A DNA stretch of 64,000 bases, from contig DAHVQG010000002.1 of NCBI GenBank assembly GCA_027317865.1, forward strand, positions 249,700-313,699, given 5' to 3'. Source of the stretch: Bdellovibrionales bacterium (GTDB taxonomy: Bacteria > Bdellovibrionota > Bdellovibrionia > Bdellovibrionales > UBA1609). The translations under genes and the position numbers were made by a program. The notes under the pieces are model-generated. The model was not told the DNA's origin. It saw only the letters and a program-made list of their open reading frames with translations, and searched no databases. This document shows positions 14,190 through 47,049 of this stretch, piece by piece; position 1 is the stretch's first letter, and each line of letters opens with the position of its first letter.

Positions 14190-14191
14190 AT

Positions 14192-23809: not shown

Positions 23810-24170
23810 TCGATTAATACATCCTCCTTTTAACTCTTGATTTCACGAGAACTTTGTCTCCAACCAAAGAATAATTTTATTTATCAAAATGACTCCTAAA
23901 TTGATCGTTTCATATGATTGTTACTTCGTATAAAAGCGGCGGTTATAGATGCGCGACCGCAGCTCCATAATACCGACACTCATATCTGGATTACTTCGCT
24001 TATATTTATCAACTCAATGCTAAAGACTTGTACGCACTATCTCTTGTATGACGATTTAACGACCGTAAATATCATCATCATTAAACATACTTTCAAAAAC
24101 TCGATATTCTTCTGACTCCCCCGGAAAATCAAAAATAGTGTCCAGTAGTTTCAATTACTTGCGAAGCTCT

Positions 24171-24203
24171 GGCCCCAACTCCAGTTGGGGCCTAGTTGGG
24201 GCC
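24171..24203. repeat. Inverted plus direct repeat next to the relaxase gene (candidate oriT)
   Basis: GGCCCCAACT-CC-AGTTGGGGCC-T-AGTTGGGGCC. Confidence 0.6.
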
Positions 24204-24204
24204 G

Positions 24205-24954
24205 CTATCGGAGAAGAAATGTGGCATTTTTTCGATTTGTAAACGGCAGAGGTGATGCACCACTTCGAACAACATCCATCGTGCATGTGTAGATTTTGGG
24301 TTCAAACTGGGATTCGAATTCAGAGTCGACTCTACGGATAGATTTCTCAATTCTGGCGTCACCGCAAACATATAATGCCGCGACGATATCGTGTGAAAAG
24401 TAATACTCCGTAAGTTTTTTGCCATACCGGACGCCGCTCTTTTCAGATGCCTCAAATTCAAGGGCCAAGCGAAACGATTTTTCCTGGCCCCTCAGTACCA
24501 AGACTGCATCCGCGTTAACAGTGCCAAACGGCCCATACTCCAAAGAAGTAGTCAGTTCTCCGCAAGCTTGGAGCATATTTTCTGATATGTAATCTTCAAA
24601 CATAGCCGATTTTTCTAGCCGCGTTCGAATATCAGTCAGGGCAACGTCATGCAAATAGGAGTCGCTTTTGAAGTAAGCTTGCGTTATTTCAAATCGATAA
24701 TCTTTGCGAACTACGTTGAATCCTTTTTCGGTTAGACCATATATCAGTTCAAGTGAGCCGCCGCTAGGTATGCCGATTTTTGACAGATATCCATCCCGCA
24801 CAAGCCGCCCCAACCGGTATTGAACGGTTGGCCGTTTTGTCGACTCGAATAATCGGCACCGTATTTGGTCGTAGCTAATGGCCCGCTGCTCGAACGCAAA
24901 TTTCATAACCTTCCGGTCGCGCTCGGTAATCTGGACAGGACCCGTGCGCCGCAT
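24205..24954 (-). CDS. Replication-relaxation (Replic_Relax-like) protein, putative relaxase
   Basis: N-terminal wHTH (ITERDRKV..RLGRLVRDGYL..YGLTEKG); HDVAL, ADAVL, ALEFEAS..K PD-(D/E)xK-type motifs; next to coupling ATPase. Confidence 0.7.
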   Translation of the reverse strand: MRRTGPVQITERDRKVMKFAFEQRAISYDQIRCRLFESTKRPTVQYRLGRLVRDGYLSKIGIPSGGSLELIYGLTEKGFNVVRKDYRFEITQAYFKSDSYLHDVALTDIRTRLEKSAMFEDYISENMLQACGELTTSLEYGPFGTVNADAVLVLRGQEKSFRLALEFEASEKSGVRYGKKLTEYYFSHDIVAALYVCGDARIEKSIRRVDSEFESQFEPKIYTCTMDVVRSGASPLPFTNRKNATFLLR

Positions 24955-24955
24955 T

Positions 24956-26461: not shown

Positions 26462-27377
26462 AGTAACTACTCGATAGTGAAATGATGAGATCCGATCCGG
26501 AGTCGATCGTTACGTAGCTCGGAGTTTGGCCGAGTTTATTTGCCTGCTCATTTGCTTCCATCTGCGCCACATTCGATAGCCCATTGTAAAAGCCGTTTCT
26601 AAGATTCGCCTTTGGCGTTGGCAAGATCGACTGCCCCAGAGATTCCTTTTGTATCATGACGTCAGACATTCCGCTGATCATCGAAAGACCGATGACAGAT
26701 GCCATCCGATCGCCCGTATTGCCGTGATAATCACCAATCACGCCCGGCCGATAGTCCTTGGAGCTTAAGGCCCGCGCACTGATTTTGAATTCATTGCCGT
26801 CCGGTAAAAGCCCATGATCGAAATTGATGTAGACGCGATCGCCGTGACCGGGGTAGCTCGACTGCCCAAATAGAATAGTCTGCGGCGGAAGGCTACCGCC
26901 GCCGAATTTGTGAGCGGCGCCATATGGTAGAACAACTTGCACGCCCTCCGGGTAGCGGGTGTCAATGCCCGAAGCGAACTTCCCAATAAAATTTGATCCA
27001 ATCGGTAATTTTTCGTATGACTCGCCAGGAGTAATCACTTGTTTTGCCCGGTAGCGCAGGTGTAACGGCTGAAGCATTGTCCTAGGCGATTTAGGTGCAT
27101 GGCTCAATACGCCGCCGACTTTAGCAACTGTAGCAGCCAGTTGCGCGGCATTGGTTCCGGCGCCTTTTTGAATCAACGACACGTTACTCTGCCTAATCGC
27201 GGTCGCAACGGGTGACTTTCGAATCGAAGGCAGAAGTGAGATAACAATACCGAGAACGGTCAATGCAAACGCCGCAAGGATCGTATGTTTTCGGTTCAAT
27301 ACTTTTTTGCCGCCCTCATTCCTAAAGAAAAAATCCCGACTACGCTCACGAATATTTATTTTCAAAAATACCGCCAA
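26445..27377 (-). CDS. VirB10/TrbI-like T4SS core protein
   Basis: Single TM, then beta-rich domain (LPIGSNFIG, RVYINF..GL, GVIG) and helical tip; T4SS context. Confidence 0.65.
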   Translation of the reverse strand: MAVFLKINIRERSRDFFFRNEGGKKVLNRKHTILAAFALTVLGIVISLLPSIRKSPVATAIRQSNVSLIQKGAGTNAAQLAATVAKVGGVLSHAPKSPRTMLQPLHLRYRAKQVITPGESYEKLPIGSNFIGKFASGIDTRYPEGVQVVLPYGAAHKFGGGSLPPQTILFGQSSYPGHGDRVYINFDHGLLPDGNEFKISARALSSKDYRPGVIGDYHGNTGDRMASVIGLSMISGMSDVMIQKESLGQSILPTPKANLRNGFYNGLSNVAQMEANEQANKLGQTPSYVTIDSGSDLIISLSSSYYETTE

Positions 27378-28087
27378 GGGATACTTCGCTCCGCGAACGT
27401 ATTCATGAAGCGCAACTTGAGCGTGAGGTTCGTCCTTTGCTTTCTTGTAAACAGCAGTCGAACTCGCGCCGACTGCCCATGCTGTACGATGCCGCTTTGA
27501 ACGACAAACTCTTGAAGCGGTAACCGATTTGAGTGATAGCTGAGATCAACTTGAAGACCCGACAGCGATACCGCATTCGTCGAGATGTTCCTAACGGTGA
27601 GGTCTATGAGGTAAAAGGATCGGCCACGAAACTGCTCGATCCGATCAACCTTTACGCCGAGCAGGTGACCCACACGAAATGCGACATGGGGGTTAGAAAC
27701 TACATGAATCGGCGAAACCAAAATGGCCGGCTTCATAGGGTCCGATGAATTTTTGTCCTCCCAATACACATGGACAAGATCGTCATATCTCTCACTCGAT
27801 GGACGTAGTAAAAATCCATAAGTGTGTTTTGCACTATACACAAATAAGTTTGTTGCGACGGCACCGCGCGGTTGTACGGCGATGTCTTTGTCTGTGAACT
27901 CGATGCCGTAATAATTCGAATTACCGAGAACCACTTTTTTTGGTTTTTCTTGAAACCTCAATACGGTCGAACGGCCCATTCGTAAATAGATCGGGATCAT
28001 TTTTGACCCGTTTGCTTCGACAGTTCGCACATTACCGGCATACGCATGGCATCCGAGAAATAATGCCAACCAAATTAGCCACCGCAA
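27362..28087 (-). CDS. VirB9-like secreted T4SS protein
   Basis: Signal peptide; IYLRMGRSTVLRF..P..VVLG, TNLFV pattern; position. Confidence 0.55.
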   Translation of the reverse strand: MRWLIWLALFLGCHAYAGNVRTVEANGSKMIPIYLRMGRSTVLRFQEKPKKVVLGNSNYYGIEFTDKDIAVQPRGAVATNLFVYSAKHTYGFLLRPSSERYDDLVHVYWEDKNSSDPMKPAILVSPIHVVSNPHVAFRVGHLLGVKVDRIEQFRGRSFYLIDLTVRNISTNAVSLSGLQVDLSYHSNRLPLQEFVVQSGIVQHGQSARVRLLFTRKQRTNLTLKLRFMNTFAERSIPWRYF

Positions 28088-28684
28088 TTATTTTCCTTGG
28101 TAAACAATTTCGCCGGCTACGTAAAGACCGAGAGGATTCCACTGAGTGCGATCGCCTTGTACGAGTTGAAATGACACTTGAGTGGGGACGACAAGCGGAA
28201 CATTATCAACTCTCAATACAACATCAAACGTTGCAACCGTACTATCTTTTGTGATTTGAATGCCAAGTCCGGCCACACTTTGTTTAACCTTCTTACCCAT
28301 AAAATCCTTGTCTTTTTCTTGACTGAGTTCGGCGATTTCTTGGGCACGGAAATTATCCGTCACAAGCGGTGCAATATCTTCGCCGATGTGATTCGGGTCG
28401 AGTGTATCCCACTGGTATGCAAGTCCCACATACTCTTCAACAAAACGTTTTATGTTGTCTTCACCGAGCGGAACCGGCCGTCTAGTACCTTGAACAAATG
28501 TGTAATCGGCGCCTTGCTGAATCGCGACAATGGGATTTCGATTTGACAGCGTCAGACATAAGATAACGAGGAGCGCGCACAAACCCGCGACGACTGCGCC
28601 CCCAACTTTGTACAAAAATAAAATTCGATTGAGTGCCACCCATTGGTTAATGGGTTTGCCATTTTCAATTGCTTTGAGTAACAA
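28088..28684 (-). CDS. VirB8-like protein
   Basis: One TM; IKRFVEEYV, C-terminal NPLGLYV. Confidence 0.7.
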   Translation of the reverse strand: MLLKAIENGKPINQWVALNRILFLYKVGGAVVAGLCALLVILCLTLSNRNPIVAIQQGADYTFVQGTRRPVPLGEDNIKRFVEEYVGLAYQWDTLDPNHIGEDIAPLVTDNFRAQEIAELSQEKDKDFMGKKVKQSVAGLGIQITKDSTVATFDVVLRVDNVPLVVPTQVSFQLVQGDRTQWNPLGLYVAGEIVYQGK

Positions 28685-28685
28685 A

Positions 28686-29633
28686 TTATCTCCTTCTTTT
28701 GTTTATATTCTTAGCTTCTTGAGGTAGCCCGACTTGGGAGTACCAGTTTGAAAAATTCCTGACATGTGGCTTCATTCGGTCAGCCATGATCTGTGCGCGT
28801 CCACTGATGGGGTTAGTCAAAGGTTTAGCCGCAAAGTTCGATGCTGCAAGAGTCCCACCCACGGCCTTTCGACCCAAAACCCTTGATGAAAGCATCGCCG
28901 CCTTCGTCGCCATGAGTCCGGGTGCAGCCGCAAGGCCAGCCGCCGCCGATTGCAATCCATCGCCCAGAAGCGATTTTGCAAATAGAGGAATGAGAAGCAT
29001 CGAAACACCGATCAGTAAGTTCATCACCATCGACAAAATGTAGTCGTCAACTCCAACGACCTTTGGATTCATTGCAAGCTTTAATAAAAGTGCGCCGAGG
29101 AGGGTCCATAAAACCTTCCATGTGGCGACACTCACCAGACCCCGATATAAATTGCCCGTGATGCGAGCCGTGGACTTGGGCACGTAGCAAAGAATCATAA
29201 GCGGCGCGCACACAAACAATATTGCCCAAACAAAATTCATGAGCGTAATCGACGCGAAAAATCCGATATAAGCGATGAGGTAAGCGCCAATTGCAAAAAT
29301 ATAAATAACGCTTGCTCTAAGATCAAATAGGCTACCTGACTTACCCTGTGAGTTCGGGCCAAGGTGCTTGATTGCGGTCCATAAAGCGTGCGTGTGGTCG
29401 ATGTGTGCCGTTATTTGATCACCCAGCATACCGATCGTGTTAACTACAGTCGCAAAAGAAACGAGAAGCAGGATCGAAATAACCGTTCGCTTGAGTATAT
29501 CGTTGACGTTGGGCGAGCTTTTTAAGAATTCAAAAACTATCAAAAGCGTGACCACAGCCGGGAGCAGTATCCAATAAACTTGAACCATCTCGCCGTGGAG
29601 ACTTTTCGCATATACGAATAAATTTTCAAACAT
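28686..29633 (-). CDS. VirB6-like polytopic membrane protein
   Basis: Multiple TMs, APLMI motif, Ala/Gly-rich tail; position. Confidence 0.65.
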   Translation of the reverse strand: MFENLFVYAKSLHGEMVQVYWILLPAVVTLLIVFEFLKSSPNVNDILKRTVISILLLVSFATVVNTIGMLGDQITAHIDHTHALWTAIKHLGPNSQGKSGSLFDLRASVIYIFAIGAYLIAYIGFFASITLMNFVWAILFVCAPLMILCYVPKSTARITGNLYRGLVSVATWKVLWTLLGALLLKLAMNPKVVGVDDYILSMVMNLLIGVSMLLIPLFAKSLLGDGLQSAAAGLAAAPGLMATKAAMLSSRVLGRKAVGGTLAASNFAAKPLTNPISGRAQIMADRMKPHVRNFSNWYSQVGLPQEAKNINKRRR

Positions 29634-29635
29634 TT

Positions 29636-30322
29636 CTAAAATCTCGATAAGCTTGTATCAAGCTTGAAATTCTGAAATCCACCGTCGAGATCGCGATCCA
29701 CTTTTTGAAAATCAGTTACCTGATCCTTGTCGGCTTTGTTATTCATGGCCAGCTGTTCGCTCTCAAGTTTCAGCATTTGAGTATTGAGGCGAATAAGCTG
29801 GCTGAGACTTCGCAAAATCTCAGCACTCGTTTCTGCCTGCATCCGAGCGGCACCCTTGGGTGAAGCCTGGCGGGCTTGTACCAGTATCTTTATCGAATTT
29901 GCTTCTTGTTCCGACGAATACTGCTTAAATGAGTCGACCATGCGTAGTGACTCAGCGACACTTTGATCGTTAAGAAGCTCTAATGCCGCAGCTCTACTCT
30001 TCGGCACTCGACCATAAATCGACGAGATCATGTCAACGGCTTGTTTGAAATTTTGTAGATCAGCCAATATTCGATCATCATGCACTGGAAGAGTCGAGAG
30101 AAGTCCGATCGAATTTTCGAGACCGGAATTTATAACGTGCATGTAATCGGACATGTCACGCCCTTGCTGGACCATTGTTTCGAATTCCTGGTAGTCTTGG
30201 ATATTCTGAGCCAGTATCTTTAATAAGATCGGAATGTCACCTCCGAAGAAATCCGCCCTGGCGGGCGGACTTATGAATAATAGCGTAAACGCTGTAACTG
30301 CCGTCCAGCGAAGTATTTTAAT
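29636..30322 (-). CDS. VirB5/TrbJ-like secreted helical protein, probable ATT start
   Basis: Frame extends 49 codons upstream of ATG 30175 to ATT 30322 after SD AAAGGAGGT, giving signal peptide (M)KILRWTAVTAFTLLFISPPARA-DFFGGD. Confidence 0.6.
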   Translation of the reverse strand: MKILRWTAVTAFTLLFISPPARADFFGGDIPILLKILAQNIQDYQEFETMVQQGRDMSDYMHVINSGLENSIGLLSTLPVHDDRILADLQNFKQAVDMISSIYGRVPKSRAAALELLNDQSVAESLRMVDSFKQYSSEQEANSIKILVQARQASPKGAARMQAETSAEILRSLSQLIRLNTQMLKLESEQLAMNNKADKDQVTDFQKVDRDLDGGFQNFKLDTSLSRF

Positions 30323-30346
30323 ACGACCTCCTTTGAATCAGTTCGA

Positions 30347-32788
30347 TTAAGCGCTCTTCTTCTGTTCATCTTTTTCACTCGCCAGCTTTTTTAGAATCTC
30401 GATTTTTTTCAGCTCCGGATGCCTTCTTTCAAGCTCTTGAATTCGCGCTTTATCGCCGGCGTCGCTGGTGCAGATCCAGTATGAAAGTGGCTCGGAGGTC
30501 AACCGTAAAACGATTTGATTTTCATCCTGTAGAAAAAAGAATTCACTATACGCACCTTTTACGACTTCTAAGCTCTTTATCGCTTCAACCTGCGCGTCGG
30601 TGAAATCAAATGTTTCTTGAAAATCCTTCCAGTCAATTTTTCGTTGCTTTAGAATAATGACGCTTGTCGAGTTTGGCATAAGCGCATCGCGGATCTCGGG
30701 ATCAGCCAAAAAATCGCGATAGTTCTGGCTAATGCACCAAATACCGGCGTTGTACTTTCGCCACGTTCTGTAGCAGGTAATAACAAACTGCTTTGATAGC
30801 TCGCCGCTTTTAAAAAACCGCTCGGCCTCGTCACAAATGAGTAGATATGGTCGCGCGAGATCCGATGCCGCTGCATCCTGAATGTACGATGTCAAAAGTA
30901 ATAGCAAAATGTCTTTAAGGTCCGGATGGTTCGTGAGTCCATTTACCTCGATGGTGACAAGATCCTTTGACAAATTGATTGTACTTGGTCCATCGAGCAT
31001 TCTACCGTAAGCCGTTTCACCACACCACGAAAATAGAATCTGCGCGAATTTTTGCATTTCTGGATCGTTATGCTTTTCTAGTGCGGTTTTCAGATCCGAC
31101 AGAAATGGAACACGCGCGGCCGACCCTTTGTATACGGCAAAAATCGCTTCTTCGAGCATGGCCTTTTCACGTTTTCCTAAAGATTTTTGGTTCGGGTCTT
31201 TAAGAATAAGTTCTAAAATTGCGAGTATCAATTTAACCCGCGCCGGAGATGGCGTGGCTTCGCCGTTTGGAAGATCAAACACATTAATCCGAATGCCGCT
31301 TTCTAAGTTCAAGTCGACAAATTCGCCGTCTAATACTTCGAGCAATTTTTGCGAACTTGCGCCATTATCGATCCAAAAAAGCCGGGGCGTCGGTTTTTGA
31401 CCGTAAAACATGAGCATCAGCTGCGAGATCGTGAAGCTCTTGCCGCTGCCTGTTCCGCCGAAAATCAGACCGTTCCACGCGGGCAATTCCTGCGCAAACG
31501 GTGAAAACGAAAATAGACCGCCGTCACGGTTTGGGATGAGGCACACTGGGCTTTGGTTCCCGCGCCAGTTACCATAGAGCGGGAGAAGATGTGCAACATT
31601 ACTACTCTTCATTTTGTAGTGGCGAAGGCCGCTACACGCACCGGGTAGGGCGTCGATAAAAACGTCAAAACCTGGCAGCGTTTCTACGATCCCTTCAGAT
31701 TGACCCATCTGTCGAAACGCTTTTAGAACTTCGTCCGATTTCTCTTCGAGCTCCTCTTGCGATTTAGCCCAAATGATTACGGTAAAATCCATCGATACGA
31801 GTCGCTCACTTCCGTCGAGTAATTCACGTAGCAAGGATTCGATATCGTTTAGTTTTGACTCGCTTTCGAGGTCAGAAACATTTTCTGATCCGCCGGCCAT
31901 CGAATTGGCCACGCGACGCTTGAGTTCTAGGCGCTGCCGTTCGCGTATTTGATCCAAAATTTTTATATTCTGGCTCATCCAAAAGTGAAACGGTAACGAC
32001 AAAGTCAAATTGTTAATTATAGAGCTATATGTCGAACCTTCAGGAAGCGTTTTCAAGGTGACTGTGCGGAAAAAATAATCGCCAACTCGCAAATGACCAC
32101 GATGGACTTCAATATCTGAAAGTGTCAACTGTTCAATTATTGACGGAGCGAGTGGGTCCCCGGATTCACGCATCGACGGTAATGGGTAGTGTTCTGCGCG
32201 ATCAAGGTTTAGGTATTGAAATACAAGACTAAACCACTCCTCGGGCTCAAGTTTTGCCGGCTTTAGCCCCGAATGTATCAGCGAAGATTCAATTTGCTTT
32301 AACGCTCGATCGAATTTTTCTCTATGAGCTGTATATTCTGACTCTGCAATGGGTTCGTATTTTTTTTGCGACTCCCAAAAACGGCGCTTTTTATAAGAAT
32401 ATGGTTTGCTTCGAATAAAAAGATAGAATTCCGGCACGAAGTAATTTTTTTGCGCTTCATTTCTCTTTAGAAACGATATCCGAGCCTCGGCAATTGGCCG
32501 ATAAATCTCTGGGGCTTCACTTGAAATCGCTGCATGTTCGGTGAGCAGGGCGCTTACATTTGGGGTCACGCGATAAAAGATCTGAAGCTTGAGCCCTTCT
32601 TCCGTACCAATTAACAGATTTTCGACTTTTCTTGTAAAGGTATTGATTTCGTCGGGTGTGCGGCACGAAATATCGACTCCTGTTAGCCGAAATGCACCGC
32701 CAAGTGAGCCGTCAGAATACACCATTAAATCTTGATCGAAGTGCCAAAACGGCAGGCGATCCGCGAGACCCGCAATATTATTTTTCAT
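30347..32788 (-). CDS. virB4: VirB4/TraC-family T4SS ATPase
   Basis: Walker A GGTGSGKS, IDNGAS, Walker B LICDEA, RKYNAG..ISQ; about 810 aa. Confidence 0.9.
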   Translation of the reverse strand: MKNNIAGLADRLPFWHFDQDLMVYSDGSLGGAFRLTGVDISCRTPDEINTFTRKVENLLIGTEEGLKLQIFYRVTPNVSALLTEHAAISSEAPEIYRPIAEARISFLKRNEAQKNYFVPEFYLFIRSKPYSYKKRRFWESQKKYEPIAESEYTAHREKFDRALKQIESSLIHSGLKPAKLEPEEWFSLVFQYLNLDRAEHYPLPSMRESGDPLAPSIIEQLTLSDIEVHRGHLRVGDYFFRTVTLKTLPEGSTYSSIINNLTLSLPFHFWMSQNIKILDQIRERQRLELKRRVANSMAGGSENVSDLESESKLNDIESLLRELLDGSERLVSMDFTVIIWAKSQEELEEKSDEVLKAFRQMGQSEGIVETLPGFDVFIDALPGACSGLRHYKMKSSNVAHLLPLYGNWRGNQSPVCLIPNRDGGLFSFSPFAQELPAWNGLIFGGTGSGKSFTISQLMLMFYGQKPTPRLFWIDNGASSQKLLEVLDGEFVDLNLESGIRINVFDLPNGEATPSPARVKLILAILELILKDPNQKSLGKREKAMLEEAIFAVYKGSAARVPFLSDLKTALEKHNDPEMQKFAQILFSWCGETAYGRMLDGPSTINLSKDLVTIEVNGLTNHPDLKDILLLLLTSYIQDAAASDLARPYLLICDEAERFFKSGELSKQFVITCYRTWRKYNAGIWCISQNYRDFLADPEIRDALMPNSTSVIILKQRKIDWKDFQETFDFTDAQVEAIKSLEVVKGAYSEFFFLQDENQIVLRLTSEPLSYWICTSDAGDKARIQELERRHPELKKIEILKKLASEKDEQKKSA

Positions 32789-33083
32789 AGATATTGGTTC
32801 GTAGCCTTTCTTGAAATTCAGGTTGCGCGCCTGCGGCATAATGGCCCGGCGTTAAGTAAAATCGCAACAGGTGGAGTAAAAATCCATCAGGTTTATTGCG
32901 CTTTCCTAGATATAGTACGAGCAGCATCGCAACTGGCACACATACGACAATCGGTAAAGGTAGGTGAAGAACATTGAGAATCGAGAGAGCAATCAAAGCC
33001 GCGATGAGATCGAGGGCCTCCATGCCCCCGATCTTCACTCTAACGTCAAGCCCACGGTGAACTGCGGACCTATTCAACTCCAC
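32778..33083 (-). CDS. VirB3-like membrane protein
   Basis: Two TMs, directly upstream of and overlapping virB4. Confidence 0.65.
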   Translation of the reverse strand: MELNRSAVHRGLDVRVKIGGMEALDLIAALIALSILNVLHLPLPIVVCVPVAMLLVLYLGKRNKPDGFLLHLLRFYLTPGHYAAGAQPEFQERLRTNIYEK

Positions 33084-33413
33084 CTAATAACCTCCGCCAA
33101 CAGCACCTTGCAGCCAGTGAATTATAATCGGCGCGAGACATCCGACGATGCATGCAATGATAATTAGTATCATTCGACCTTTTGCACCCTGATCACCAGA
33201 AACCGCAAGAATAGCGGCATAGACAAGGCCCAAGATAGAAATCGCTGGCAATACGACAGTGATGAGCTTGCCTGTTAAACCTGCAACACGCCCCGACAGT
33301 TCATCGGCGCCAACGCCGCCATAGCTTTGTGCGAATGCGAAATGCGGGTAAAGAGTCATCAAAGCAAATACGCCGATCAAAACGCACGCCAATGCAATAG
33401 TTGACTTTTTCAC
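33084..33413 (-). CDS. VirB2/TrbC-like pilin
   Basis: Signal ending AFA, then two hydrophobic helices. Confidence 0.7.
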   Translation of the reverse strand: MKKSTIALACVLIGVFALMTLYPHFAFAQSYGGVGADELSGRVAGLTGKLITVVLPAISILGLVYAAILAVSGDQGAKGRMILIIIACIVGCLAPIIIHWLQGAVGGGY

Positions 33414-33766
33414 TCGGTAACGTCTGGCACAAGAACGAGTCGCTGCGGCAAATATCGGCCAATCTTCATGTACACGTGACCATTCGTCTCGCCACTTGAA
33501 TATCCATTACCTACAGGTACACGATGAGAAAATTTACCGTTAATATCAACTGGCGAATGAACGACGTAATCGATTCGATCTTCATTGGCCTCTTTCGGTC
33601 GAAGATAGAGAATGGTGCGAGGCGCATCGAGCACAAGTCGATATTCGCCAAATTCAGGGACATAAAATGCAACACCGGCATTATATTTTTCGCCGCTTTC
33701 AGGGTCTAACCAAAACAACTCTTCTTTTTTTGTTTTTTTAATTTTTTCCATTTTAGAAATCCTCAA
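33410..33766 (-). CDS. Hypothetical protein in the tra operon
   Basis: Beta-rich ORF of about 115 aa, coupled to the pilin gene. Confidence 0.6.
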   Translation of the reverse strand: MRISKMEKIKKTKKEELFWLDPESGEKYNAGVAFYVPEFGEYRLVLDAPRTILYLRPKEANEDRIDYVVHSPVDINGKFSHRVPVGNGYSSGETNGHVYMKIGRYLPQRLVLVPDVTE

Positions 33767-33810
33767 ATTATTTGTAATTGACCGACAGTAAATCCATTCC
33801 GAGATTTTAC

Positions 33811-34152
33811 TTACGCCGCGACGAGTTCCTCTCCTGAATCTTTTCTCAGGGCTGAAACCAGTTCACTTCGCAAATTATCGAGTGCATGGCTAAAAATCTT
33901 TATTGTTAAATCGATCGGCAGTTCAATTTGTGCGGCGATTGAAGAAAACGACAAGCCCTCCCAGAATCTCAAATAAACAACCAAACGTTCTTCGCGAGAC
34001 AGTTTGGCGACACGGTCGCGCACGAGTGCGGCCTGGCGGTCTTTTCGTTGGTCGTAGCGCCAATGTTTTTTTCGTTCATAATCAGCGAAAACTCTATTAT
34101 CCATCTCACGCTCAATCATTTTTGGACTCCAATATTGAAGTTTCGTGTTCAC
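33811..34152 (-). CDS. Sigma-70 region-4-like HTH protein
   Basis: LSREERLVVYLRFWEGLSFSSIAAQIELP...ALDNLR. Confidence 0.75.
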   Translation of the reverse strand: MNTKLQYWSPKMIEREMDNRVFADYERKKHWRYDQRKDRQAALVRDRVAKLSREERLVVYLRFWEGLSFSSIAAQIELPIDLTIKIFSHALDNLRSELVSALRKDSGEELVAA

Positions 34153-34280
34153 CAGAACCGTCCGTATAACCCGTATTTGATTCGAGCTTCATCGCGTGCC
34201 TTTCTTAATCGTTCCTCATCAACTTTTATTTCAAAAAGTATATAGTGGACCCGCTTAAAAATTTGGCGGAGCTTATCCAT
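34149..34280 (-). CDS. 43-aa small protein (below ORF-track cutoff)
   Basis: MDKLRQIFKRVHYILFEIKVDEERLRKARDEARIKYGLYGRFW; SD AAGAGG; overlaps both neighbours. Confidence 0.6.
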   Translation of the reverse strand: MDKLRQIFKRVHYILFEIKVDEERLRKARDEARIKYGLYGRFW

Positions 34281-34752
34281 TGGATGCCTCTTTTGAAAAT
34301 GGGATTACATTCGAGGTTTGCCTCTCGACAGTTTCATCGGGGCGCCGAAAACTAACGACGTTTTCAATGCTGACAACGCGAGCTTCTGGCTTGCCATTAC
34401 CGCCGTTTTCTAGAAATTCCTGACACTCGATACAAAAAGTGCAGTCCGGCTGTGCATCGAGACGCCTGGGATCAATTTCTTCTTCGCATCCTTCACACAC
34501 ACCGAAAATCCCCATGTCGATTCGTCTGAGTGCTCGCGCCAATTTGCCAGCTTGCCTTTCGATATGTCGAAACATACCCATTCGTTGATTGCGATCGCTC
34601 AGTTCTTTTGCTTCATCGAGTGGGTCGGGTAAAATTAATGGGTCTTCGACAATCGCGCGCAATTCGGATTCGAGACCCTCCCACATTTGGTGGAGGGCGC
34701 GCTGTCGCTCCAAGATATTGTCTTTGAATTTTTGTAGCTGTTCGTTTGTCAC
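34273..34752 (-). CDS. TraR/DksA C4 Zn-finger protein
   Basis: DPLDEA coiled-coil tip; CEGC...RRL.A.P....CIEC; likely GTG start 34752 after GAGGAGG. Confidence 0.88.
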   Translation of the reverse strand: MTNEQLQKFKDNILERQRALHQMWEGLESELRAIVEDPLILPDPLDEAKELSDRNQRMGMFRHIERQAGKLARALRRIDMGIFGVCEGCEEEIDPRRLDAQPDCTFCIECQEFLENGGNGKPEARVVSIENVVSFRRPDETVERQTSNVIPFSKEASNG

Positions 34753-34813
34753 GTTTTTCTCCTCCTCGTGGGGGGAAAAATTAGCCCCACGACTTTCTGT
34801 TACTGCAAGAGGA

Positions 34814-34830
34814 GTCAGCGATCGTGCCAA
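34814..34830 (-). promoter_or_regulatory. Putative sigma54 promoter of the tra operon
   Basis: TTGGCACGATCGCTGAC: perfect -24 element; GG-N10-GA with non-consensus -12. Confidence 0.6.
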
Positions 34831-34897: not shown

Positions 34898-34973
34898 TGA
34901 ACGCAGTTACGTCCACGAATTTTGAATTTCAATGTGTTATCGCAAACATGATGAAAAGACGTATCTACGTCCA
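34898..34973. promoter_or_regulatory. Two palindromic enhancer-like sites
   Basis: TGAACGCA-GT-TACGTCCA (34898-34915) and AAGACGTA-TC-TACGTCCA (34956-34973). Confidence 0.7.
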
Positions 34974-39527: not shown

Positions 39528-39654
39528 CTAAATTTCCCCTACAAAAAGTTTATCACAGTTTTAATAGCCATAAGCGTGTTTCAGATACTCTTGTGCATTT
39601 TTAGGAAAACAAGTCTCAAAATGAGGCAATGACCAGTCACAATTCTACACAGCA

Positions 39655-41126: not shown

Positions 41127-42578
41127 TTAGGCCGACGGCAGCGATTCGTTTCCATGTCTCCCCACGCCGACGCCGACGTCATCGAGACTGACATCGTGGT
41201 CGTTCAGCTCCGAACGAAGACCGTGCCTATCAATTAAAGTGTGAAGCGTCGACGGGCTTATACCCATCCGCGCGGCAGTCTGGCGAAGCGTTGGGCCGAG
41301 GCTAATTTGATACCGAATGAATTCGCGTTCCGCGTTCTGTTGCTGCGTCTTAAATCGTTTATGGCTGGCGTCCAGTACCGGGTTCGCTTTACCGTCAAGG
41401 CTCTGCATTTTCTTGTCGAGGTGATGAAATTCAATTGTATCACTTCGAGTGTTCGTAAGGAGCGCTGACACGTACCCATCCAATTCGCCAACATTTCCGG
41501 GCCACGGATATTTTTCAAGCTGTCGCATGGCCGCTTTACGGAATTCTTTTCGCTCGCCGGTCTCCTTGAAATGTTTGTCGCAAAGATGAAGCACGATCGG
41601 CTCTATATCTTCAGTTCGCTCGCGCAAAGGTGGAATTTCGATGCAAAGAAATTTGATTCTATAATAAAGGTCGGGCAAAAATGATTTGTTGGCTACGCGA
41701 GCCTCAAGGTCAGGATGCGAAGCCACGATCAGCCTAAAATCGACATCAACCTCTTGTTGAGCGCCCACTCGTCGAACTTTCTTCTCGCGAATTACACGCA
41801 GTAGTTTCGCTTGAGCCTGCGGAGCCATGTGATGGATCTCATCCAGAAACACGGTGCCACCTCGCGCGGCTTCGAAAATTCCAACTTTCCGTGCTATAGC
41901 GCCCGTGAACGCGCCTTTCTCATGCCCAAACAGCTCTGACTCAAACAAATTGCCCTCATCCGAGACAGTACAACTGAAGGTAAAAAATTTCTCAGCAGGA
42001 CCATTATGAATCATGCGCGCAAAGATCTCTTTGCCGACCCCAGTTTCTCCGAGAAGGAGCACCGTCTTTTTGGATTGCCGGTAATCCAACGCGTTTGAGA
42101 TACCCTCTGCAAGGGCGCGCGATCTCCCAGCGAGATTTTGCCCTGTAATGATCTTGGTAGCTTCATCTACAGACAGCGTCGGTTTAACCTTTCGCACTTT
42201 TTCATATAGCTCACAGGCTTTACCCAGAGATTCTTTGAGAACGTCGTTGTTTTCGGTGCGTTCAATATAGTTTAGGGCTCCAGCCCGAATAGTGGCCACA
42301 GCGTCATCTTTCGAACCTTCGTAAGCGGTGTAAATAATAGTTATGATTTCGCCGTTTAGTTTTCTTATTTCATCCGCCGTTTGCGGGCCATTTTTTCCGG
42401 GCATACGAAAGTCAATGACCGCTACCGAATATTCTTTAGATGCTGCACGAATACAGTCGATAGCCTCCTCGCCGCTTGTGACGGTGTCGATATTATAACC
42501 CCACCGCTGAATCAAACTTCGTATATCGATTAGGTTGTCTTCGTCATCGTCTACAATGAGAATGTTATGTTTGAGCAT
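41127..42578 (-). CDS. Sigma54-dependent response regulator (REC-AAA+-HTH, NtrC/AtoC family)
   Basis: [46 protein letters not shown]-terminal HTH; start ATG 42578 after GAGG. Confidence 0.93.
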
Positions 42579-44019
42579 GCGCCACCTCGTATCGTTCGGT
42601 TCCTCGGTCGATGTTTGCCGGGCAAAACGAAATAAAAAACTCTGTTCCGCGTCCCACTTCTGACGAAAAGCTAATCGTTGCATTAAAGGAGTCACAAATA
42701 CCTTTTACGACCCCAAGGCCGATGCCGGTGCCTCGAAGAGGTTTTGTTGTAAAATCAACTTCGAAAATTCTTTCGCGATTTTCAATCGGGATACCGCATC
42801 CGCAATCTTTTACAATCATCGTCGGTCTGCCGTCCGCATTCGTAATCCGGATCTCGATTGTTTTCTCCTCGCACTCCGCCATTGCTGCAATTGAATTTTG
42901 CACAATATTTTCGAGTACCCTGTAAAACTCGATTTTGTTTATGTTCGCTGGCGGGACAATTCCGTCTTGGAAAAAATCGATTTGCACGTTATTCCGTAAA
43001 AATTCATGATCGTCGCGCAAACTCGAAATGTAATTACTGACTTCTTCCTTCAATAAAATGACGCTATCGCGACGATCACTAGACGCTCGTTTAATCAATG
43101 GGTAACGAACGAGTCGGATGATGTCACCCAATTGGCTAATAGAGCGTTTAACACGCGCGATTTCTTCGGTATCGTAGCGACCCGTTAATTCAATGGTGCT
43201 GACCATGTTCTCGACTTGCATAGCAAGACGCGAATGGGGTGTTTTTAGGTCGTGGCCAATCTCACGAAGAAGGCCGAAATGGGCCAAAGCGCGAGCTTCA
43301 TTTGCGGCAACTTCTTGAAGTCGTCTTATTTCTAAATGGAGGCCGTCTACTGCTTCTTTCATCGGCGCTAAGTCTGTAAACGGAGCAATCGACCGATTCT
43401 CAATGCGCCTACTTGGCGCATCCTTGAGATGTTTTGCCCATTCCTGAAAGAGTGAAGACAATTTTCGGGTTGCATTGCCGATTGCACTGAATATCCCGAT
43501 CGTGTTGCCGACAAATGCACCAAACAATACAAAGAGAAGGCAGAATAAAATGTTGTAATCGAGTGCGGGCTTGAGTGTAAGGTCAAGGTACCCGAATAGA
43601 TTTTTGTGTCCTGGCTCGTCAAAATATAGTGGGTATAACATGCTCACGCTACGAAAGTGCGGCGACCAACATGACACGTTGGGGCTGAAGCAGTTGGGTC
43701 GGACGGGCGACTTTGGATCAACCGAATAGATTTCTTTTAATTTTGCATTTCGAACGACTGCGGATTCTCCAGCTTTTAACCCAAGCGCTGTTTGCATTTG
43801 AATTTCGGCGTCGCGCACGTCTCCTTGTAGAATCATGGGCCGGTATGCAGTTGCAGCCGCGCGTGCAACGGTCAAAAGCTGTCGCTCCGATACATTTTTT
43901 TGAGCGTAAAATAAAATTGGAGCGGCGATTGCGGTTGCAACTACGAATGAGACAAGCGACCATCGTATCGTTTGCCGTCGAAAATATGATTCTAAAGATG
44001 TGCCTTTTTCGTCGCGCAT
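42565..44019 (-). CDS. Membrane sensor histidine kinase
   Basis: Two TMs around a periplasmic domain; GHDLKTP, NIVQNS, DCGCGI, FTTK, GTGIGL. Confidence 0.92.
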   Translation of the reverse strand: MRDEKGTSLESYFRRQTIRWSLVSFVVATAIAAPILFYAQKNVSERQLLTVARAAATAYRPMILQGDVRDAEIQMQTALGLKAGESAVVRNAKLKEIYSVDPKSPVRPNCFSPNVSCWSPHFRSVSMLYPLYFDEPGHKNLFGYLDLTLKPALDYNILFCLLFVLFGAFVGNTIGIFSAIGNATRKLSSLFQEWAKHLKDAPSRRIENRSIAPFTDLAPMKEAVDGLHLEIRRLQEVAANEARALAHFGLLREIGHDLKTPHSRLAMQVENMVSTIELTGRYDTEEIARVKRSISQLGDIIRLVRYPLIKRASSDRRDSVILLKEEVSNYISSLRDDHEFLRNNVQIDFFQDGIVPPANINKIEFYRVLENIVQNSIAAMAECEEKTIEIRITNADGRPTMIVKDCGCGIPIENRERIFEVDFTTKPLRGTGIGLGVVKGICDSFNATISFSSEVGRGTEFFISFCPANIDRGTERYEVAHAQT

Positions 44020-44024
44020 TTTTC

Positions 44025-45485
44025 CTACTTAAAACGAATTTTTGACCAAGTAACCGATTCATCCGATAGGGGCACTTTTGAAAAATCTAAGCCGTCGCGG
44101 CCGATGCCGACAGTAGAAAGATGCATCAGCGGGAGAACATATCCATCCCTCACGGCTTCGGCGACAATTCTTCTCATTGCGGCCACCCGCTGCACTGGAT
44201 CAGTCATGCGTCGAGCGGCATCAAGCAATTTTACACAGTTGATAGTCCCAGATGGAACGACTGGTGTCGTTCCTTCGAAGTAGAAAGACATAATCCCTTC
44301 GGGATCTGGATCAGCAATCCCATATGTGCCCGCATAAAGATCGAAGTTGCCGACCTCGCGCCGCTGAAAAGCTTCCTGAAGTGGTAACGATATAAAATTC
44401 GCCTCTATCCCCAATTTTTTGAGCGCTATCTCAATATTGTGTTTGAGATGAGGCGGCACTCTCGCCGGGCTCATCAAAATATCCAATTTCTTTTTGAACG
44501 ATTCACCCGCCTCACCATCTTTTGGCTGCTGATAATTTAAATCGTATAGCTGGTAGCCTTTAGGAAACAGCTGATGGGCGACTGTGAAACCTGAAAGTCC
44601 TTCGGTCAGCGTACTACGATCGAGGTGCGCATTGAGAAACTGAAGTAATGCGTAGCCCTGGCTATTTCTCATCCGCTTGCCAAGTTCAAACAGAAAGACT
44701 TTGTCGATCGGCCGCCGCCATACTTGATAACCGCTAGATTCATAGCTGTGAGATAAGTCGCGAGAGAGGAGTGACGAAGTTTCGATAAAATTTGGCCATC
44801 TGTCATTTAACAGCACTGATTGAGAATCCATGGTCAGACTTGGACGCCGAATGATCACCTCTTCAGCCACGCCGTCCGAAAAATTGTGCCAATTCGGATT
44901 GCGTTTCAATATCAACTCTTCATGAGACCCTGAAGATAAATAAAATGCGCCCGTACTTACCGAAAGATTAATTTCACCATTAGGCTGCACTTTCAAAATA
45001 CCGTAATTTGGCTCAGTGAGTTTCTGGAGAAAAGTGCTTTGAGCAGCAGGCATCTTTAAATAAAAAGTGATGGTCGTCTGATTAGGGCATTCGATTCTCT
45101 CCAGCATGTTGGCGAGGCTTCTCATGTCTTCCGGATATTTTTTTAAATCGCGCTCAAAACTTCGCTTAATTTCTTCACTAGTTATAGGAGAACCGTCAGA
45201 CCATTTGGCATTTGGGCGCAACGTGAAGCTGTAGGCATTCTCAGCCGAAATTTTCCACGTTGCAGCAAGGCCCGAGGTCAATTGCTTTGCCGGGCTCCAT
45301 TCAACCAACGTGCTGGCCAGAGCATACGAAAGATCCATATCTGGAATGATCACAATTTTTGCCGGGTCAACGGGGTAGTTAAACGGCAGGTATGTTCTGA
45401 TCTCTTTCATTGGTCTCTCCGGGGTTTTAGTGACCGCCTCACTTCGAATCGCAATAATACTCAATAGCAATATTAAAATTTTCAT
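44025..45485 (-). CDS. Family-5 (OppA/DppA-like) periplasmic binding protein with no linked permease or ATPase
   Basis: Signal peptide; GLA..W, FTLRPNAKWSDGSPITSEEI..SF, STGAFYL, L.RNPNW. Confidence 0.85.
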   Translation of the reverse strand: MKILILLLSIIAIRSEAVTKTPERPMKEIRTYLPFNYPVDPAKIVIIPDMDLSYALASTLVEWSPAKQLTSGLAATWKISAENAYSFTLRPNAKWSDGSPITSEEIKRSFERDLKKYPEDMRSLANMLERIECPNQTTITFYLKMPAAQSTFLQKLTEPNYGILKVQPNGEINLSVSTGAFYLSSGSHEELILKRNPNWHNFSDGVAEEVIIRRPSLTMDSQSVLLNDRWPNFIETSSLLSRDLSHSYESSGYQVWRRPIDKVFLFELGKRMRNSQGYALLQFLNAHLDRSTLTEGLSGFTVAHQLFPKGYQLYDLNYQQPKDGEAGESFKKKLDILMSPARVPPHLKHNIEIALKKLGIEANFISLPLQEAFQRREVGNFDLYAGTYGIADPDPEGIMSFYFEGTTPVVPSGTINCVKLLDAARRMTDPVQRVAAMRRIVAEAVRDGYVLPLMHLSTVGIGRDGLDFSKVPLSDESVTWSKIRFK

Positions 45486-45494
45486 TTATAAAAT

Positions 45495-45532
45495 GGGCTG
45501 AAGCAGTTGCGTGAAGTGCGACTGCTCCGCCC
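45495..45532 (-). terminator. Stem-loop between peptide and SBP genes (partial terminator or mRNA stabiliser)
   Basis: Minus strand GGGCGGAGCAGTCGC-ACTTCAC-GCAACTGCTTCAGCCC then ATTTT. Confidence 0.6.
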
Positions 45533-45540
45533 AACCTCGC

Positions 45541-45690
45541 TTATCCGCAAGACGCGCCAGATGCGCCAAATTGTACTATTCCGCCACAAGGCTCGGCACC
45601 TTGGGCTGACGTCATCAAGTGTCGAGCACCAAATGAAAAATAGGTGCCCGCGATTAACATCGCGAACATCAGATTTTTTAGTTTGGACAT
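45541..45690 (-). CDS. 49-aa putative RiPP precursor / signalling peptide
   Basis: SD AGGAG before ATG 45690; MSKLKNLMFAMLIAGTYFSFGARHLMTSAQGAEPCGGIVQFGASGASCG; starts 19 nt after the YcaO stop. Confidence 0.8.
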   Translation of the reverse strand: MSKLKNLMFAMLIAGTYFSFGARHLMTSAQGAEPCGGIVQFGASGASCG

Positions 45691-45709
45691 TTTTTCTCCT
45701 TCGACTCCG

Positions 45710-46765
45710 CTACGGTACACAATGAGGCAAAGAGCAGAGTCTATTTGTTTGCCGCACATTCCAAAGTCGACGCCGATTCAACAGGCCAATCCTGTCTGCA
45801 TCGGCCGTTCGACCAAAAAATAATTTTTGTACTTCATTACTTGAGCAGTATCCGACTGAAATCGGCCCTGAAATAACCTGATGAAATTCGGCGTTCCGAG
45901 TGCGCCGAGAAAACTCATTGTACTGATTACGCCACGTTTTATTAAGTTCACTATACGAAACGACCGGCCCGAATATCCACTCCGGTACTGGAATGTGATA
46001 CGCGTAGACCATTGCGTGGTCGATAGGCGTGAAGCTACTAGCGGCAATGTCGCGTGCTAGGTTTCGAGATGACTCCTTAAATTCGCCGGCCATTTCAACT
46101 TCACCAATGCGACAGGTTTCAGCCAACGCTTTATAAACGGCCTCACCCAAGGTCGCGGCGCTCGCTTGCGACATTAGACCGTGACCGTCAGACGAGAGAA
46201 GCAATGTCATTACGGCCGGCACAACGCCTTCAGTGGTCGCAAAAACACAAAGTCTCTTGAATCGAGGATGTAGTGCGAGTTCGTTGTGGCCCCAATCGCG
46301 CAACCATTCAGGAGCAGATTCTAGATCAACACTTAAAAAAGATTTTTCGCAAAGCCAGTGAGCCAAAATGGCGTCTCGCTCGTACAACTCTTCAACGGCC
46401 GATTTTTGTACCCGTACTGGGTCGACGTGTGCCGCCCAACCGTTTGACGTCAATATTTTTGGATCGCGGGCTTTCATCATTTTGTAAACTGCGCGCTCAA
46501 CGCCTTCGACGATACATTTTTGATTGGCTACGAGCTGACTTTCAGATTCTCCGTAGCCGTAACCCAAGTCGTCACCCGCTCGAACTTCGCTCACAAATGA
46601 AAATTTCGAAAATCGTAAGCCCGGCGACCTTTGAGATCTGAACAACTTTTTTACTTTTATATCGATGATCTCGCCGCTAGAAAGGGTTGCTTTGACACCG
46701 TCTAGGTACACGGCGATTTTACCGCTATTCATAATCGCTCGAATTTCTGTCCGTACACTTCTCAT
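45710..46765 (-). CDS. YcaO-family protein (stand-alone)
   Basis: EGVER, TSNGWAAH, ELYERDA, ALAE motifs; C-terminal PHCVP resembling the YcaO PxPxP tail. Confidence 0.85.
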   Translation of the reverse strand: MRSVRTEIRAIMNSGKIAVYLDGVKATLSSGEIIDIKVKKLFRSQRSPGLRFSKFSFVSEVRAGDDLGYGYGESESQLVANQKCIVEGVERAVYKMMKARDPKILTSNGWAAHVDPVRVQKSAVEELYERDAILAHWLCEKSFLSVDLESAPEWLRDWGHNELALHPRFKRLCVFATTEGVVPAVMTLLLSSDGHGLMSQASAATLGEAVYKALAETCRIGEVEMAGEFKESSRNLARDIAASSFTPIDHAMVYAYHIPVPEWIFGPVVSYSELNKTWRNQYNEFSRRTRNAEFHQVISGPISVGYCSSNEVQKLFFGRTADADRIGLLNRRRLWNVRQTNRLCSLPHCVP

Positions 46766-46815
46766 TCAAAAGCTCTCTTCATGGCGGCAAAGAAAACCGC
46801 ACAACTTTCCACCTG

Positions 46816-46832
46816 AGCATTTCGCGGGCCAA
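46816..46832 (-). promoter_or_regulatory. Putative sigma54 promoter of the ycaO-peptide-SBP-HK-RR operon
   Basis: TTGGCCCGCGAAATGCT = GG-N10-GC, about 50 nt upstream of the ycaO ATG. Confidence 0.7.
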
Positions 46833-46930
46833 TGGCACCGGACCATCAAAAATGAGGTCTAAGAACTTGAAAGTACGGGAGTTTATCACTTGCTTAAAAA
46901 TTAAGCAGCGGGAAATATTTACTATGAAGA

Positions 46931-47049
46931 TGGACGTAGTTACGTCCACCTGGCGGGTGGCAAACCGGCGATTGTAGGTACAAGTCAGCAAAAGTATTCA
47001 ACTTATCTTATTTATTTGAATTTATGAGTGGTGGACGCGTTTACGTCCA
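46931..47049. promoter_or_regulatory. Two palindromic enhancer-like sites
   Basis: TGGACGTA-GT-TACGTCCA (46931-46948, perfect) and TGGACGCG-TT-TACGTCCA (47032-47049); further half-site at 47325-47332. Confidence 0.75.

Follow-up and report, generated by a model that had tools for sequence, protein, structure and literature searches.

The 64,000-nucleotide stretch analysed here (positions 249,700 to 313,699 of contig DAHVQG010000002.1, assembly GCA_027317865.1; hereafter the window) comes from a 2.65-Mb, 99.2% complete metagenome-assembled genome (MAG) of Bdellovibrionota type and carries, on an integrative and conjugative element (ICE), a cassette of five genes encoding a YcaO enzyme, a 49-aa peptide, a family-5 solute-binding protein, a histidine kinase and a sigma54-dependent response regulator. 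As a conserved genetic module the cassette is well supported; the chemistry and the signalling that we propose for it are unproven. We lean slightly towards reading it as a self-signalling three-component sensor that serves as the regulatory unit of a family of Bdellovibrionota ICEs.

In the mechanism that we propose, the 49-aa open reading frame (ORF) would supply a ribosomal precursor that has a Sec signal peptide at its N-terminus and a C-terminal tail bearing a fixed motif, and the minimal, cytoplasmic, ATP-dependent YcaO would modify the peptide backbone at that motif before export. Through Sec and signal peptidase, the periplasm would receive a mature peptide 15-35 residues long; there the orphan family-5 binding protein would take it up and dock on the periplasmic domain of the kinase, which has two transmembrane segments (two-TM), thereby modulating the kinase. 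The phosphorylated sigma54 regulator would then bind 18-bp palindromes and turn on the sigma54 promoter of its own operon in a positive feedback and, through a second palindrome pair, would also control the DksA/TraR-pilin-VirB4 conjugation operon. We infer the modification of this peptide by the YcaO, its role as the ligand, the sign of the response and any action from cell to cell.

Conservation of the five-gene cassette

A sequence-only reading of the window had described five co-oriented, tightly packed genes, and this arrangement was borne out: the genes occupy the minus strand from 46765 to 41127 with gaps of 5-55 nt, the last two overlapping (Table 1). Likewise, the peptide that had been credited with a strong Shine-Dalgarno sequence is encoded by an ORF beginning 20 nt past the ycaO stop behind a GGAG-type ribosome-binding site, and the binding protein that had been described as lacking a permease has an N-terminal hydrophobic signal, with no permease-family match among the five products. 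An orphan binding protein beside a kinase, without a permease, is the gene arrangement of a "three-component" sensor. The regulator combines the REC, AAA+ and C-terminal helix-turn-helix (HTH) domains of the NtrC class, with GAFTGA at residue 261; its true start probably lies near ATG 42575, because homologues measure 449-463 aa.

Retention of this gene order at homologous loci had been set beforehand as a refutation test, and the order recurred in 30 further loci. The sample on the ycaO side comprised the window and 30 loci whose YcaO match was strong (E <= 1e-20), out of 17 genome and 19 metagenome loci; the weak-hit loci L023, L024 and L041-L043 and the near-identical copy L008 were excluded from these counts. 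Relatives of the YcaO numbered 29 in a 90%-clustered collection (E <= 0.001 among 3774 candidates), at 25-54% identity, and all those with a source name were labelled Bdellovibrionales or Bdellovibrionota; the family profile matched 103 representatives of 50%-identity clusters at E <= 1e-30. A small ORF with a ribosome-binding site lay directly 3' of ycaO in 25 of 28 assessable loci, the exceptions being L019 (a truncated ycaO remnant), L028 (a 118-aa ORF) and L034 (a 29-aa ORF). The binding protein came next in 23 of 24 assessable loci, followed by the kinase in 18 of 20 and the sigma54 regulator in 17 of 19; all three were missing from L019, and the kinase and regulator from L017. Genes of a type IV secretion system (T4SS; VirB4, pilin, the gene after the pilin, or DksA/TraR) were present in the same locus in 14 of 31 cases, many contigs being short, and their position varied from divergent upstream of ycaO to directly 3' of the regulator.

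A survey from the binding-protein side recovered 23 loci in 22 of 401 sampled Bdellovibrionota genomes, with ycaO directly upstream in 20 of the loci and behind a 1.5-kb insertion in one (L075). That insertion, between ycaO and the binding-protein gene (G251:C5, ~1.5 kb), is probably an insertion sequence on the opposite strand. Short YcaO proteins with the same partners were also seen in distant modules, namely L050, L051 and L023 (two copies). The gene order in L051 is VirB4, YcaO, binding protein, kinase and sigma54 regulator. L050 is a second, very diverged module in the host genome itself, at a contig end (contig C11, 7129-11274). It begins with a signal-bearing ORF of 120 aa whose C-terminus is rich in Gly/Thr; a YcaO-like gene (317 aa, only 16.5 bits in Pfam) comes next, then genes for a family-5 binding protein and a histidine kinase. 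A regulator is lacking, and a resolvase lies nearby. One complete cassette with its T4SS (L018) was found on a 908,788-bp contig labelled Lysobacteraceae (Pseudomonadota), a label that reflects either cross-phylum transfer or a mislabelled MAG.

Operators and promoters of the cassette and conjugation operons

The GG-N10-GC promoter and two 18-bp palindromes that had been read ahead of ycaO are present there (promoter at 46831..46816, palindromes at 46931 and 47032), and the same palindrome pair was found, as had been claimed, before the conjugation operon, in two copies at 34898 and 34956 with two mismatches each. At two mismatches or fewer the palindrome occurs four times in the window against 0.21 expected, a count attained by none of 100 shuffles, and seven times in the whole 2.65-Mb genome, four of these being the copies at the two operons. 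A sigma54 promoter stood 32-75 nt ahead of ycaO in all 28 loci with at least 120 nt of upstream sequence (TGG-N9-TGC, with TTGCT in 27 of the 28). The host has rpoN, whose core-binding domain was matched with 199 bits at C22:3-560 (L049) on the window's own contig; the RpoN DNA-binding domain was not found in the genome because rpoN runs off the contig start. Fifteen full PF00158 matches in the genome correspond to 15 enhancer-binding proteins.

Several palindromes lie upstream of each ycaO promoter, and their half-site varies by locus, falling into six classes: TGGACGT (the window); TCGACGA or TGACGA; TGCGCGA; CATTCAA; ATTCAG-N5-CTGAAT; and CCACAG-N5-CTGTGG. Among the 16 loci holding both regions, 12 have their locus-specific palindrome (two mismatches or fewer) before both ycaO and the T4SS operon and almost nowhere else within the locus; the remaining four (L010, L012, L027 and L051) have similar half-sites, judged by eye only. 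In an alignment of the HTH domains, the recognition helix of the regulator was common within an operator class and different between classes, and the helix of L015 fits the TGCGCGA class, GTGCGC-type palindromes indeed being present at that locus. Of all the evidence, this co-variation between operator and recognition helix argues most strongly for binding of the regulator to these sites and for its control over both operons, and the earlier claim of a regulator wired to both is upheld by the palindromes ahead of each and by the two-site pattern across loci. Autoregulation of the cassette through the predicted regulator sites is, in our judgement, highly probable, and we hold with good confidence that the regulator binds the predicted sites before the T4SS operon. 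L018 has a third copy of its operator, downstream of the regulator beside a resolvase gene (15360-15529).

The sequence-only reading had also placed a sigma54-like element before the conjugation operon. Both of its boxes are perfect, but they are spaced by N15, not N5, so that the element is non-canonical as a sigma54 promoter. The T4SS-operon promoter is highly conserved and runs through TTGGCAC, TTGCA(A)T, a GTGAGAGG-like word and a hairpin to the ribosome-binding site; this promoter and leader were seen at 34740-34830 in the window and in L011, L013, L014, L018, L030, L033, L051 and others. The same element may alternatively be read as a sigma70-type -35/-10 pair (TTGGCA-17-TGCAAT), and the element's own region-4 and DksA/TraR proteins may be involved at this promoter.

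A candidate modified peptide and its possible sensing

Pfam PF02624 matched the YcaO with 34.0 bits (cut-off 25.7), covering only profile positions 113-261 of 325, and a search of solved structures with the family profile gave 0 matches. For the AlphaFold 2 (AF2) model (predicted local distance difference test, pLDDT, 93.7), the best 40 of 41 Foldseek matches (E <= 0.001) were all YcaO entries, and VIA-align returned Z 17-23 for 14 YcaO entries, the next unrelated row having Z 6.3. The top VIA-align matches (Z 20-23, root-mean-square deviation 3.4-3.8, 280-303 residues) were LynD, the 7u58 enzyme, two archaeal thioamide-forming YcaOs and McbD, and since their Z values lie within ~2 of one another the fold does not discriminate the YcaO subclass. 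Alignments to the azoline-forming LynD and McbD extended to the very C-terminus, LynD being matched in its YcaO half only. Residues E73, K83, E87, E90, R91, E126, E129, R130 and D131 are invariant in 27 YcaO sequences; they may correspond to the published ATP/Mg-binding residues. The invariant Glu/Arg/Asp motifs and the conserved C-terminus of Pro-His-x-x-Pro type suggest that the YcaO is an active enzyme. TfuA (PF07812) was not found in the 99.2% complete host genome and, because there is neither a dehydrogenase nor TfuA, the most likely chemistry would be that an azoline forms on the Ser/Thr or Cys within the peptide motif; thioamidation may be an alternative, kept because TfuA-independent archaeal YcaOs are among the top fold matches, as may YcaO-dependent loss of the final residues.

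The peptides matched no family in Pfam or NCBIfam. We examined 23 of them, 16 of a short type (45-60 aa, including that of the window) and seven of a long type (97-103 aa), calling signal peptides with a simple scan of our own rather than a trained predictor. All 23 showed a Sec-signal pattern, with 1-3 Lys/Arg preceding an 11-mer of hydrophobic character (Kyte-Doolittle mean 1.8-3.3) plus putative small-x-small sites, the hydrophobic core being weakest of all in the window peptide (1.81). The latter has a basic n-region, the hydrophobic core, small-residue cleavage-type sites and a Gly-rich tail, with a Gly-x-Ser/Thr-Cys/Gly motif one residue short of the C-terminus. Short-type peptides in general combine one to three Lys/Arg and a hydrophobic stretch with a small-residue motif, after which come a basic residue and Leu; they also have small-x-small sites and a Gly-rich hydrophilic tail, and 14 of the 16 carry the motif Gly-[Ala/Gly/Ser]-[Ser/Thr]-[Cys/Gly] 1-4 residues from the C-terminus. 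Long-type peptides, whose cassettes encode YcaOs only 25-29% identical to that of the window, show clear signal peptides that contain Ala-x-Ala sites, together with a ~60-residue domain that is conserved, and near the end all seven carry [Ser/Asn]-Pro-[Ser/Thr]-[Cys/Ser]-hydrophobic. What is conserved in these peptides is a pattern, not residues, and a Ser/Thr-Cys/Ser/Gly dyad near the C-terminus, beside a YcaO, is common to two types that cannot otherwise be aligned.

A short ORF beside a modifying enzyme, with an export part and a modifiable core, is what defines a candidate precursor of a ribosomally synthesised and post-translationally modified peptide (RiPP), and the proposal that the small ORF is such a precursor gained support, in that it is conserved and appears to behave like one with a fixed C-terminal motif. 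We think it likely that the peptide is the YcaO substrate. The YcaO could instead act on another protein, for example the kinase, the binding protein or one of the host, or have a non-RiPP role like that of E. coli YcaO, the small ORF then being an unrelated secreted or membrane-anchored mini-protein; on either count we judge this very improbable. The absence of an RRE (RiPP recognition element) or partner protein and of any sequence-level match to a solved YcaO would fit such a role, as would the place of the small ORF in L050, upstream and not downstream of ycaO, but the adjacency of the small ORF to ycaO in 25 of the 28 assessable loci and the retention of a Ser/Thr-Cys/Gly dyad near the C-terminus of two otherwise unalignable peptide types argue for a substrate.

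Export of the peptide had been proposed as well. A Sec-type signal is its most probable route, but such a signal leads to the periplasm and not necessarily outside the cell; it would account for the absence of an exporter, a leader protease and an immunity gene, none of which was found in any cassette. With Sec-type export ending in the periplasm, the modified peptide might stay in the periplasm of its producer and act in a private, cell-autonomous positive feedback, as a bistable switch or timer for entry into transfer competence or as a reporter of envelope or Sec status, a reading that we consider improbable. It is favoured by the lack of a conserved outer-membrane export gene (the gene for an outer-membrane protein (OMP)-like product in the window recurs, weakly, in one other locus only), by the mature products of ~75 residues that long-type precursors yield and by autoregulation via a canonical sigma54 promoter; a secreted, specifically modified ligand with a high-affinity binding protein is, however, elaborate for a cell-autonomous switch, and passage of the outer membrane by vesicles, secretins or prey contact is conceivable. 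Signalling between cells is nonetheless doubtful in our view. The fuller proposal is similarly tentative: a diderm peptide pheromone, carrying a YcaO-made azoline or another backbone modification, Sec-exported, released and read by a relay of binding protein, kinase and sigma54 regulator, by which the ICE would count donors or recipients before building its transfer apparatus. If this were true, ~100 clusters with differing tails and operator/HTH pairs would represent natural orthogonal signalling channels.

The model of the binding protein (pLDDT 88) is of the peptide/nickel/opine class. In Foldseek, AapF in complex with a signalling molecule ranked first; OppA, NikA and CntA came next, and the pheromone-binding PrgZ stood at rank 36. 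The family and fold matches of the binding protein also include MppA. In the ~110-aa periplasmic domain of the kinase, a Pro-Ile-Tyr-Phe-Asp stretch is conserved and two Cys are invariant across all 16 sequences aligned, and mean pairwise identity was 0.44 for the regulator, 0.42 for the binding protein, 0.35 for the YcaO and 0.31 for the regulator HTH. The kinase sensor looks built to meet a conserved partner, the binding protein, and not a variable peptide, and the binding protein may chiefly recognise the modified C-terminal motif, which is conserved. In our view it is about an even chance that the binding protein takes this peptide as its ligand. A YcaO tree of 22 loci was poorly resolved, with five of 19 inner branches supported, and Cys-type and Gly-type tails were interspersed.

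The same matches bear on another alternative, in which the signal reaching the binding protein and kinase comes from outside, as a metal chelate, oligopeptides or cell-wall peptides of prey or potential recipients, and the YcaO-peptide pair is the output. NikA and CntA are metal-chelate binders and stand with OppA and MppA among the matches of the binding protein; many peptide tails have His, Cys and Gly near the motif; and bufferins are a case in which Sec-exported RiPPs act as periplasmic metallophores. Yet the genes for YcaO, precursor, binding protein and kinase remain clustered in distant modules too, even where their order has changed and no regulator or T4SS is nearby (L050, L023), the ycaO-precursor pair was seen without a binding protein only at contig ends or in degraded loci, and His is not universal in the tails and is absent from the mature peptide of the window. 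We rate this alternative as unlikely, and the outputs envisaged under it, a bufferin-like periplasmic metal-binding RiPP or a surface or exclusion factor made with the transfer machinery, are to be taken with the same reserve.

A number of results weigh against a self-signalling sensor that gates transfer. On the chemical side, the YcaO C-terminus is of Pro-His-x-x-Pro and not PxPxP type; TIGR03604 (SagD-type cyclodehydratase) scored only 41.4 bits against a cut-off of 219.25 (48.9 and 43.7 bits in the relatives at L022 and L051); and no E1-like/RRE partner or flavin mononucleotide (FMN) dehydrogenase was found among the five cassette genes or among neighbours at six other loci. The peptides show no contrast between a conserved leader and a hypervariable core, mean pairwise identity being 0.27 and 0.26, respectively. 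Mature peptides of 15-75 residues are too large for general porins, and no conserved outer-membrane exporter is present with the cassettes. The sequence-only reading had suggested a check for pherotypes, but no signature of divergence was seen: the kinase sensor domain diverges no more than the cytoplasmic part does (identity 0.35 versus 0.34), and the binding protein is the second-best conserved component behind the regulator. At the conjugation operon, 10 loci, the window among them, have their promoter boxes N15 apart (N14 in one of these), and six loci of the other clade have them N3 apart; N5 is never seen there, though the ycaO promoters of the same loci use it; the sigma54 activator may therefore not directly drive the conjugation operon. 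Finally, L017 and L019 are degraded cassettes, ycaO is absent at two of the 23 binding-protein loci (L076 and the distant L077), and every locus is from a MAG or a metagenome contig. No RNA run was listed among the sequencing runs that match, and the only run covering the sequence in full is of DNA and may be the source of the window's own DNA.

Self-signalling by such a cassette would have a close parallel in loci of the agr (Staphylococcus) and com type, which are autoregulated operons of a precursor peptide, a modifying enzyme, a sensor kinase and a response regulator. As there, precursor, modifier, kinase and regulator share one operon and the product feeds back on its own promoter; here, in contrast, the modifier is a YcaO in place of AgrB or ComQ, a Sec signal stands in for a dedicated processing and export protein, a periplasmic kinase domain with a separate binding protein replaces the polytopic peptide-sensing membrane domain, and the output side comprises a sigma54 activator, a diderm host and a conjugation operon. 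An orphan periplasmic binding protein beside a two-TM kinase, without a permease, is shared with LuxP/LuxQ, TorT/TorS and AioX/AioS/AioR. AioR is itself a sigma54 activator. AioXSR is reported to combine a sensor in the periplasm with a kinase spanning the membrane and its cognate regulator. From the LuxP, TorT and AioX systems the window's cassette differs in that its presumed ligand is made by the same operon and its binding protein belongs to family 5.

Among modified peptides, bufferins (PMC11626156) are MNIO-modified RiPPs with a Sec signal peptide that are modified in the cytoplasm at Cys-containing sites and accumulate in the periplasm, and the authors remark that Sec signal peptides are rare in bacterial RiPP precursors. 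They offer a precedent for a Sec-signal RiPP, being ribosomal precursors with a Sec signal and no dedicated exporter, but their enzymes are MNIO and DUF2063 proteins and not a YcaO, their products are copper-binding metallophores under an extracytoplasmic function (ECF) sigma factor, and they are not placed in a kinase/regulator cassette on a conjugative element (PMC11626156). The azoline-forming YcaOs (LynD, McbD and 7u58) and the archaeal thioamide YcaOs (6ci7 and 6peu) resemble the window YcaO in fold over the whole protein, and the substrate-like peptide of the window has Ser/Thr/Cys preceded by Gly, as azoline YcaO substrates do; at 351 aa, the window YcaO differs from these enzymes in being among the smallest and in lacking an E1-like/RRE partner, a dehydrogenase and TfuA.

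Mobile elements that encode their own signal and receptor to gate transfer are represented by ICEBs1 (RapI-PhrI) and pCF10 (PrgZ). The Ti plasmid, with TraR and an acyl-homoserine lactone (AHL), follows the same plan. With PrgZ, pCF10 also offers an example of peptide-pheromone recognition by a binding protein of family 5, whereas the peptides of ICEBs1 and pCF10 are unmodified and are imported to cytoplasmic receptors, in contrast to periplasmic sensing through a kinase of a presumably YcaO-modified peptide here. New relative to known peptide autoinduction gating mobile elements would be the YcaO enzyme, the Sec route and the combination of family-5 binding protein, kinase and sigma54 activator in a diderm; within titles and the starts of abstracts, with subscription journals and supplements outside the search, we found no literature tying a YcaO to the combination of a binding protein, a kinase and a sigma54 regulator, or to conjugation control. 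Were the proposal true, the cassette would provide a new RiPP class, the first YcaO-modified peptide with a role in signalling, a diderm peptide autoinduction loop that dispenses with a dedicated exporter by means of Sec export and a periplasmic binding protein as co-receptor, and an explanation of transfer gating in a widespread family of conjugative elements of predatory bacteria. A curated family exists for neither the YcaO subfamily nor the precursors, and the operator/recognition-helix pairs, together with the short precursor, make each step directly testable in a heterologous host.

The element and its other genes

That the cassette lies on an ICE, as had been proposed, is supported by the parts present, namely a tmRNA site, a serine recombinase, a relaxase-like protein, a coupling protein and a T4SS; integrase, relaxase-type protein, coupling protein, VirB4-type ATPase and pilin form one block at the tmRNA site. 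The products of the conjugation operon are DksA/TraR, a sigma70 region-4 protein, a TrbC/VirB2 pilin, VirB4/TraC, VirB9-like and VirB10-like proteins, an FtsK-type coupling protein and Replic_Relax.

Table 1. Positions in the window of the cassette genes, regulatory sites and element landmarks
Feature	Coordinates	Strand	Details
ycaO, minimal stand-alone YcaO, 351 aa	45710..46765	-	Pfam PF02624; AF2/Foldseek/VIA fold matches
Precursor ORF, 49 aa	45541..45690	-	Sec-type signal, Gly-rich tail, C-terminal motif
Family-5 solute-binding protein (peptide/nickel/opine class)	44025..45485	-	SBP_bac_5 PF00496, 95.8 bits
Two-TM sensor histidine kinase	42565..44019	-	Hydrophobic segments at residues 18-40 and 147-181
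Sigma54-dependent response regulator	41127..42695	-	REC PF00072, Sigma54_activat PF00158 (177 bits), AAA lid PF25601, HTH
Canonical sigma54 promoter, GG-N10-GC (TGGCCC-N5-ATGCT)	46816..46831	-	66 nt before ycaO start
Proximal 18-bp operator palindrome	46931..46948		Perfect TGGACGT-N4-ACGTCCA; ~100 bp upstream of ycaO promoter
Distal 18-bp operator palindrome	47032..47049		1 mismatch to TGGACGT-N4-ACGTCCA; ~200 bp upstream of ycaO promoter
Operator copy upstream of conjugation operon	34956..34973		2 mismatches
Operator copy upstream of conjugation operon	34898..34915		2 mismatches
Promoter-like element of conjugation operon, TTGGCAC-N15-TTGCA	34800..34830	-	Perfect sigma54-like boxes, non-canonical spacing
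Conjugation operon	22874..34752	-	Opened by DksA/TraR zinc-finger gene, probable GTG start 34752
Large serine recombinase	22528..20726	-	Left end of element, beside tmRNA gene
tmRNA gene	20442-20794	+	Left end and integration site of element

In a second genome of the same genus (G006) the element is 99.95-99.98% identical over 3.8 + 10.9 kb and occupies the same tmRNA site, while the chromosomal flank around the tmRNA gene is only 82-91% identical between G006 and the host; a near-identical element in a diverged flank indicates recent transfer. The copy in G006 (L008) has a 10.9-kb segment corresponding to 41003-51927, with the cassette and the RHS gene, inverted and joined directly to 35146 at the conjugation-operon promoter, and it is missing the genes at 35183-40821. 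The junctions 35146/35147, 41002/41003 and 51927/51928 all bear an ATATTC-like word, which may mark site-specific recombination or may reflect an assembly difference between the two MAGs. The right end of the element was sought without success: the tmRNA 3' end is not repeated beyond 12 nt anywhere in the window, and no long direct or inverted repeats were found between 19500 and 53000.

Between the regulator and the conjugation operon lie three minus-strand genes (35183-40821). Their products, without Pfam matches, measure 683, 753 and 388 aa, and the one of 753 aa has an N-terminus like that of a lipoprotein. The 388-aa OMP-like protein, beside the regulator, has three chromosomal paralogues at 40-46% identity and a weak relative after the regulator in L015 only. 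On the other side, an RHS/YD-repeat protein of 1337 aa (47650-51663, plus strand) is encoded divergently from ycaO, so that the operator-bearing intergenic region is common to both genes; a third operator half-site lies near 47322 in this region, and the RHS gene showed no sigma54-type promoter. The last ~120 residues of the RHS protein, beyond the RHS core, are Gly/Ala-rich and hydrophobic. Just past the RHS gene, within or outside the element, are a second sigma54 response regulator (52183-53685, minus strand) and a large CheB-CheR-PAS-kinase-REC fusion (55558-59872, plus strand). In L025, cargo resembling a cyclic-oligonucleotide-based antiphage signalling system (CBASS), consisting of a SMODS nucleotidyltransferase and a Cap15 receptor, occupies 13657-15209, in the interval from the regulator to the T4SS operon's DksA/TraR gene.

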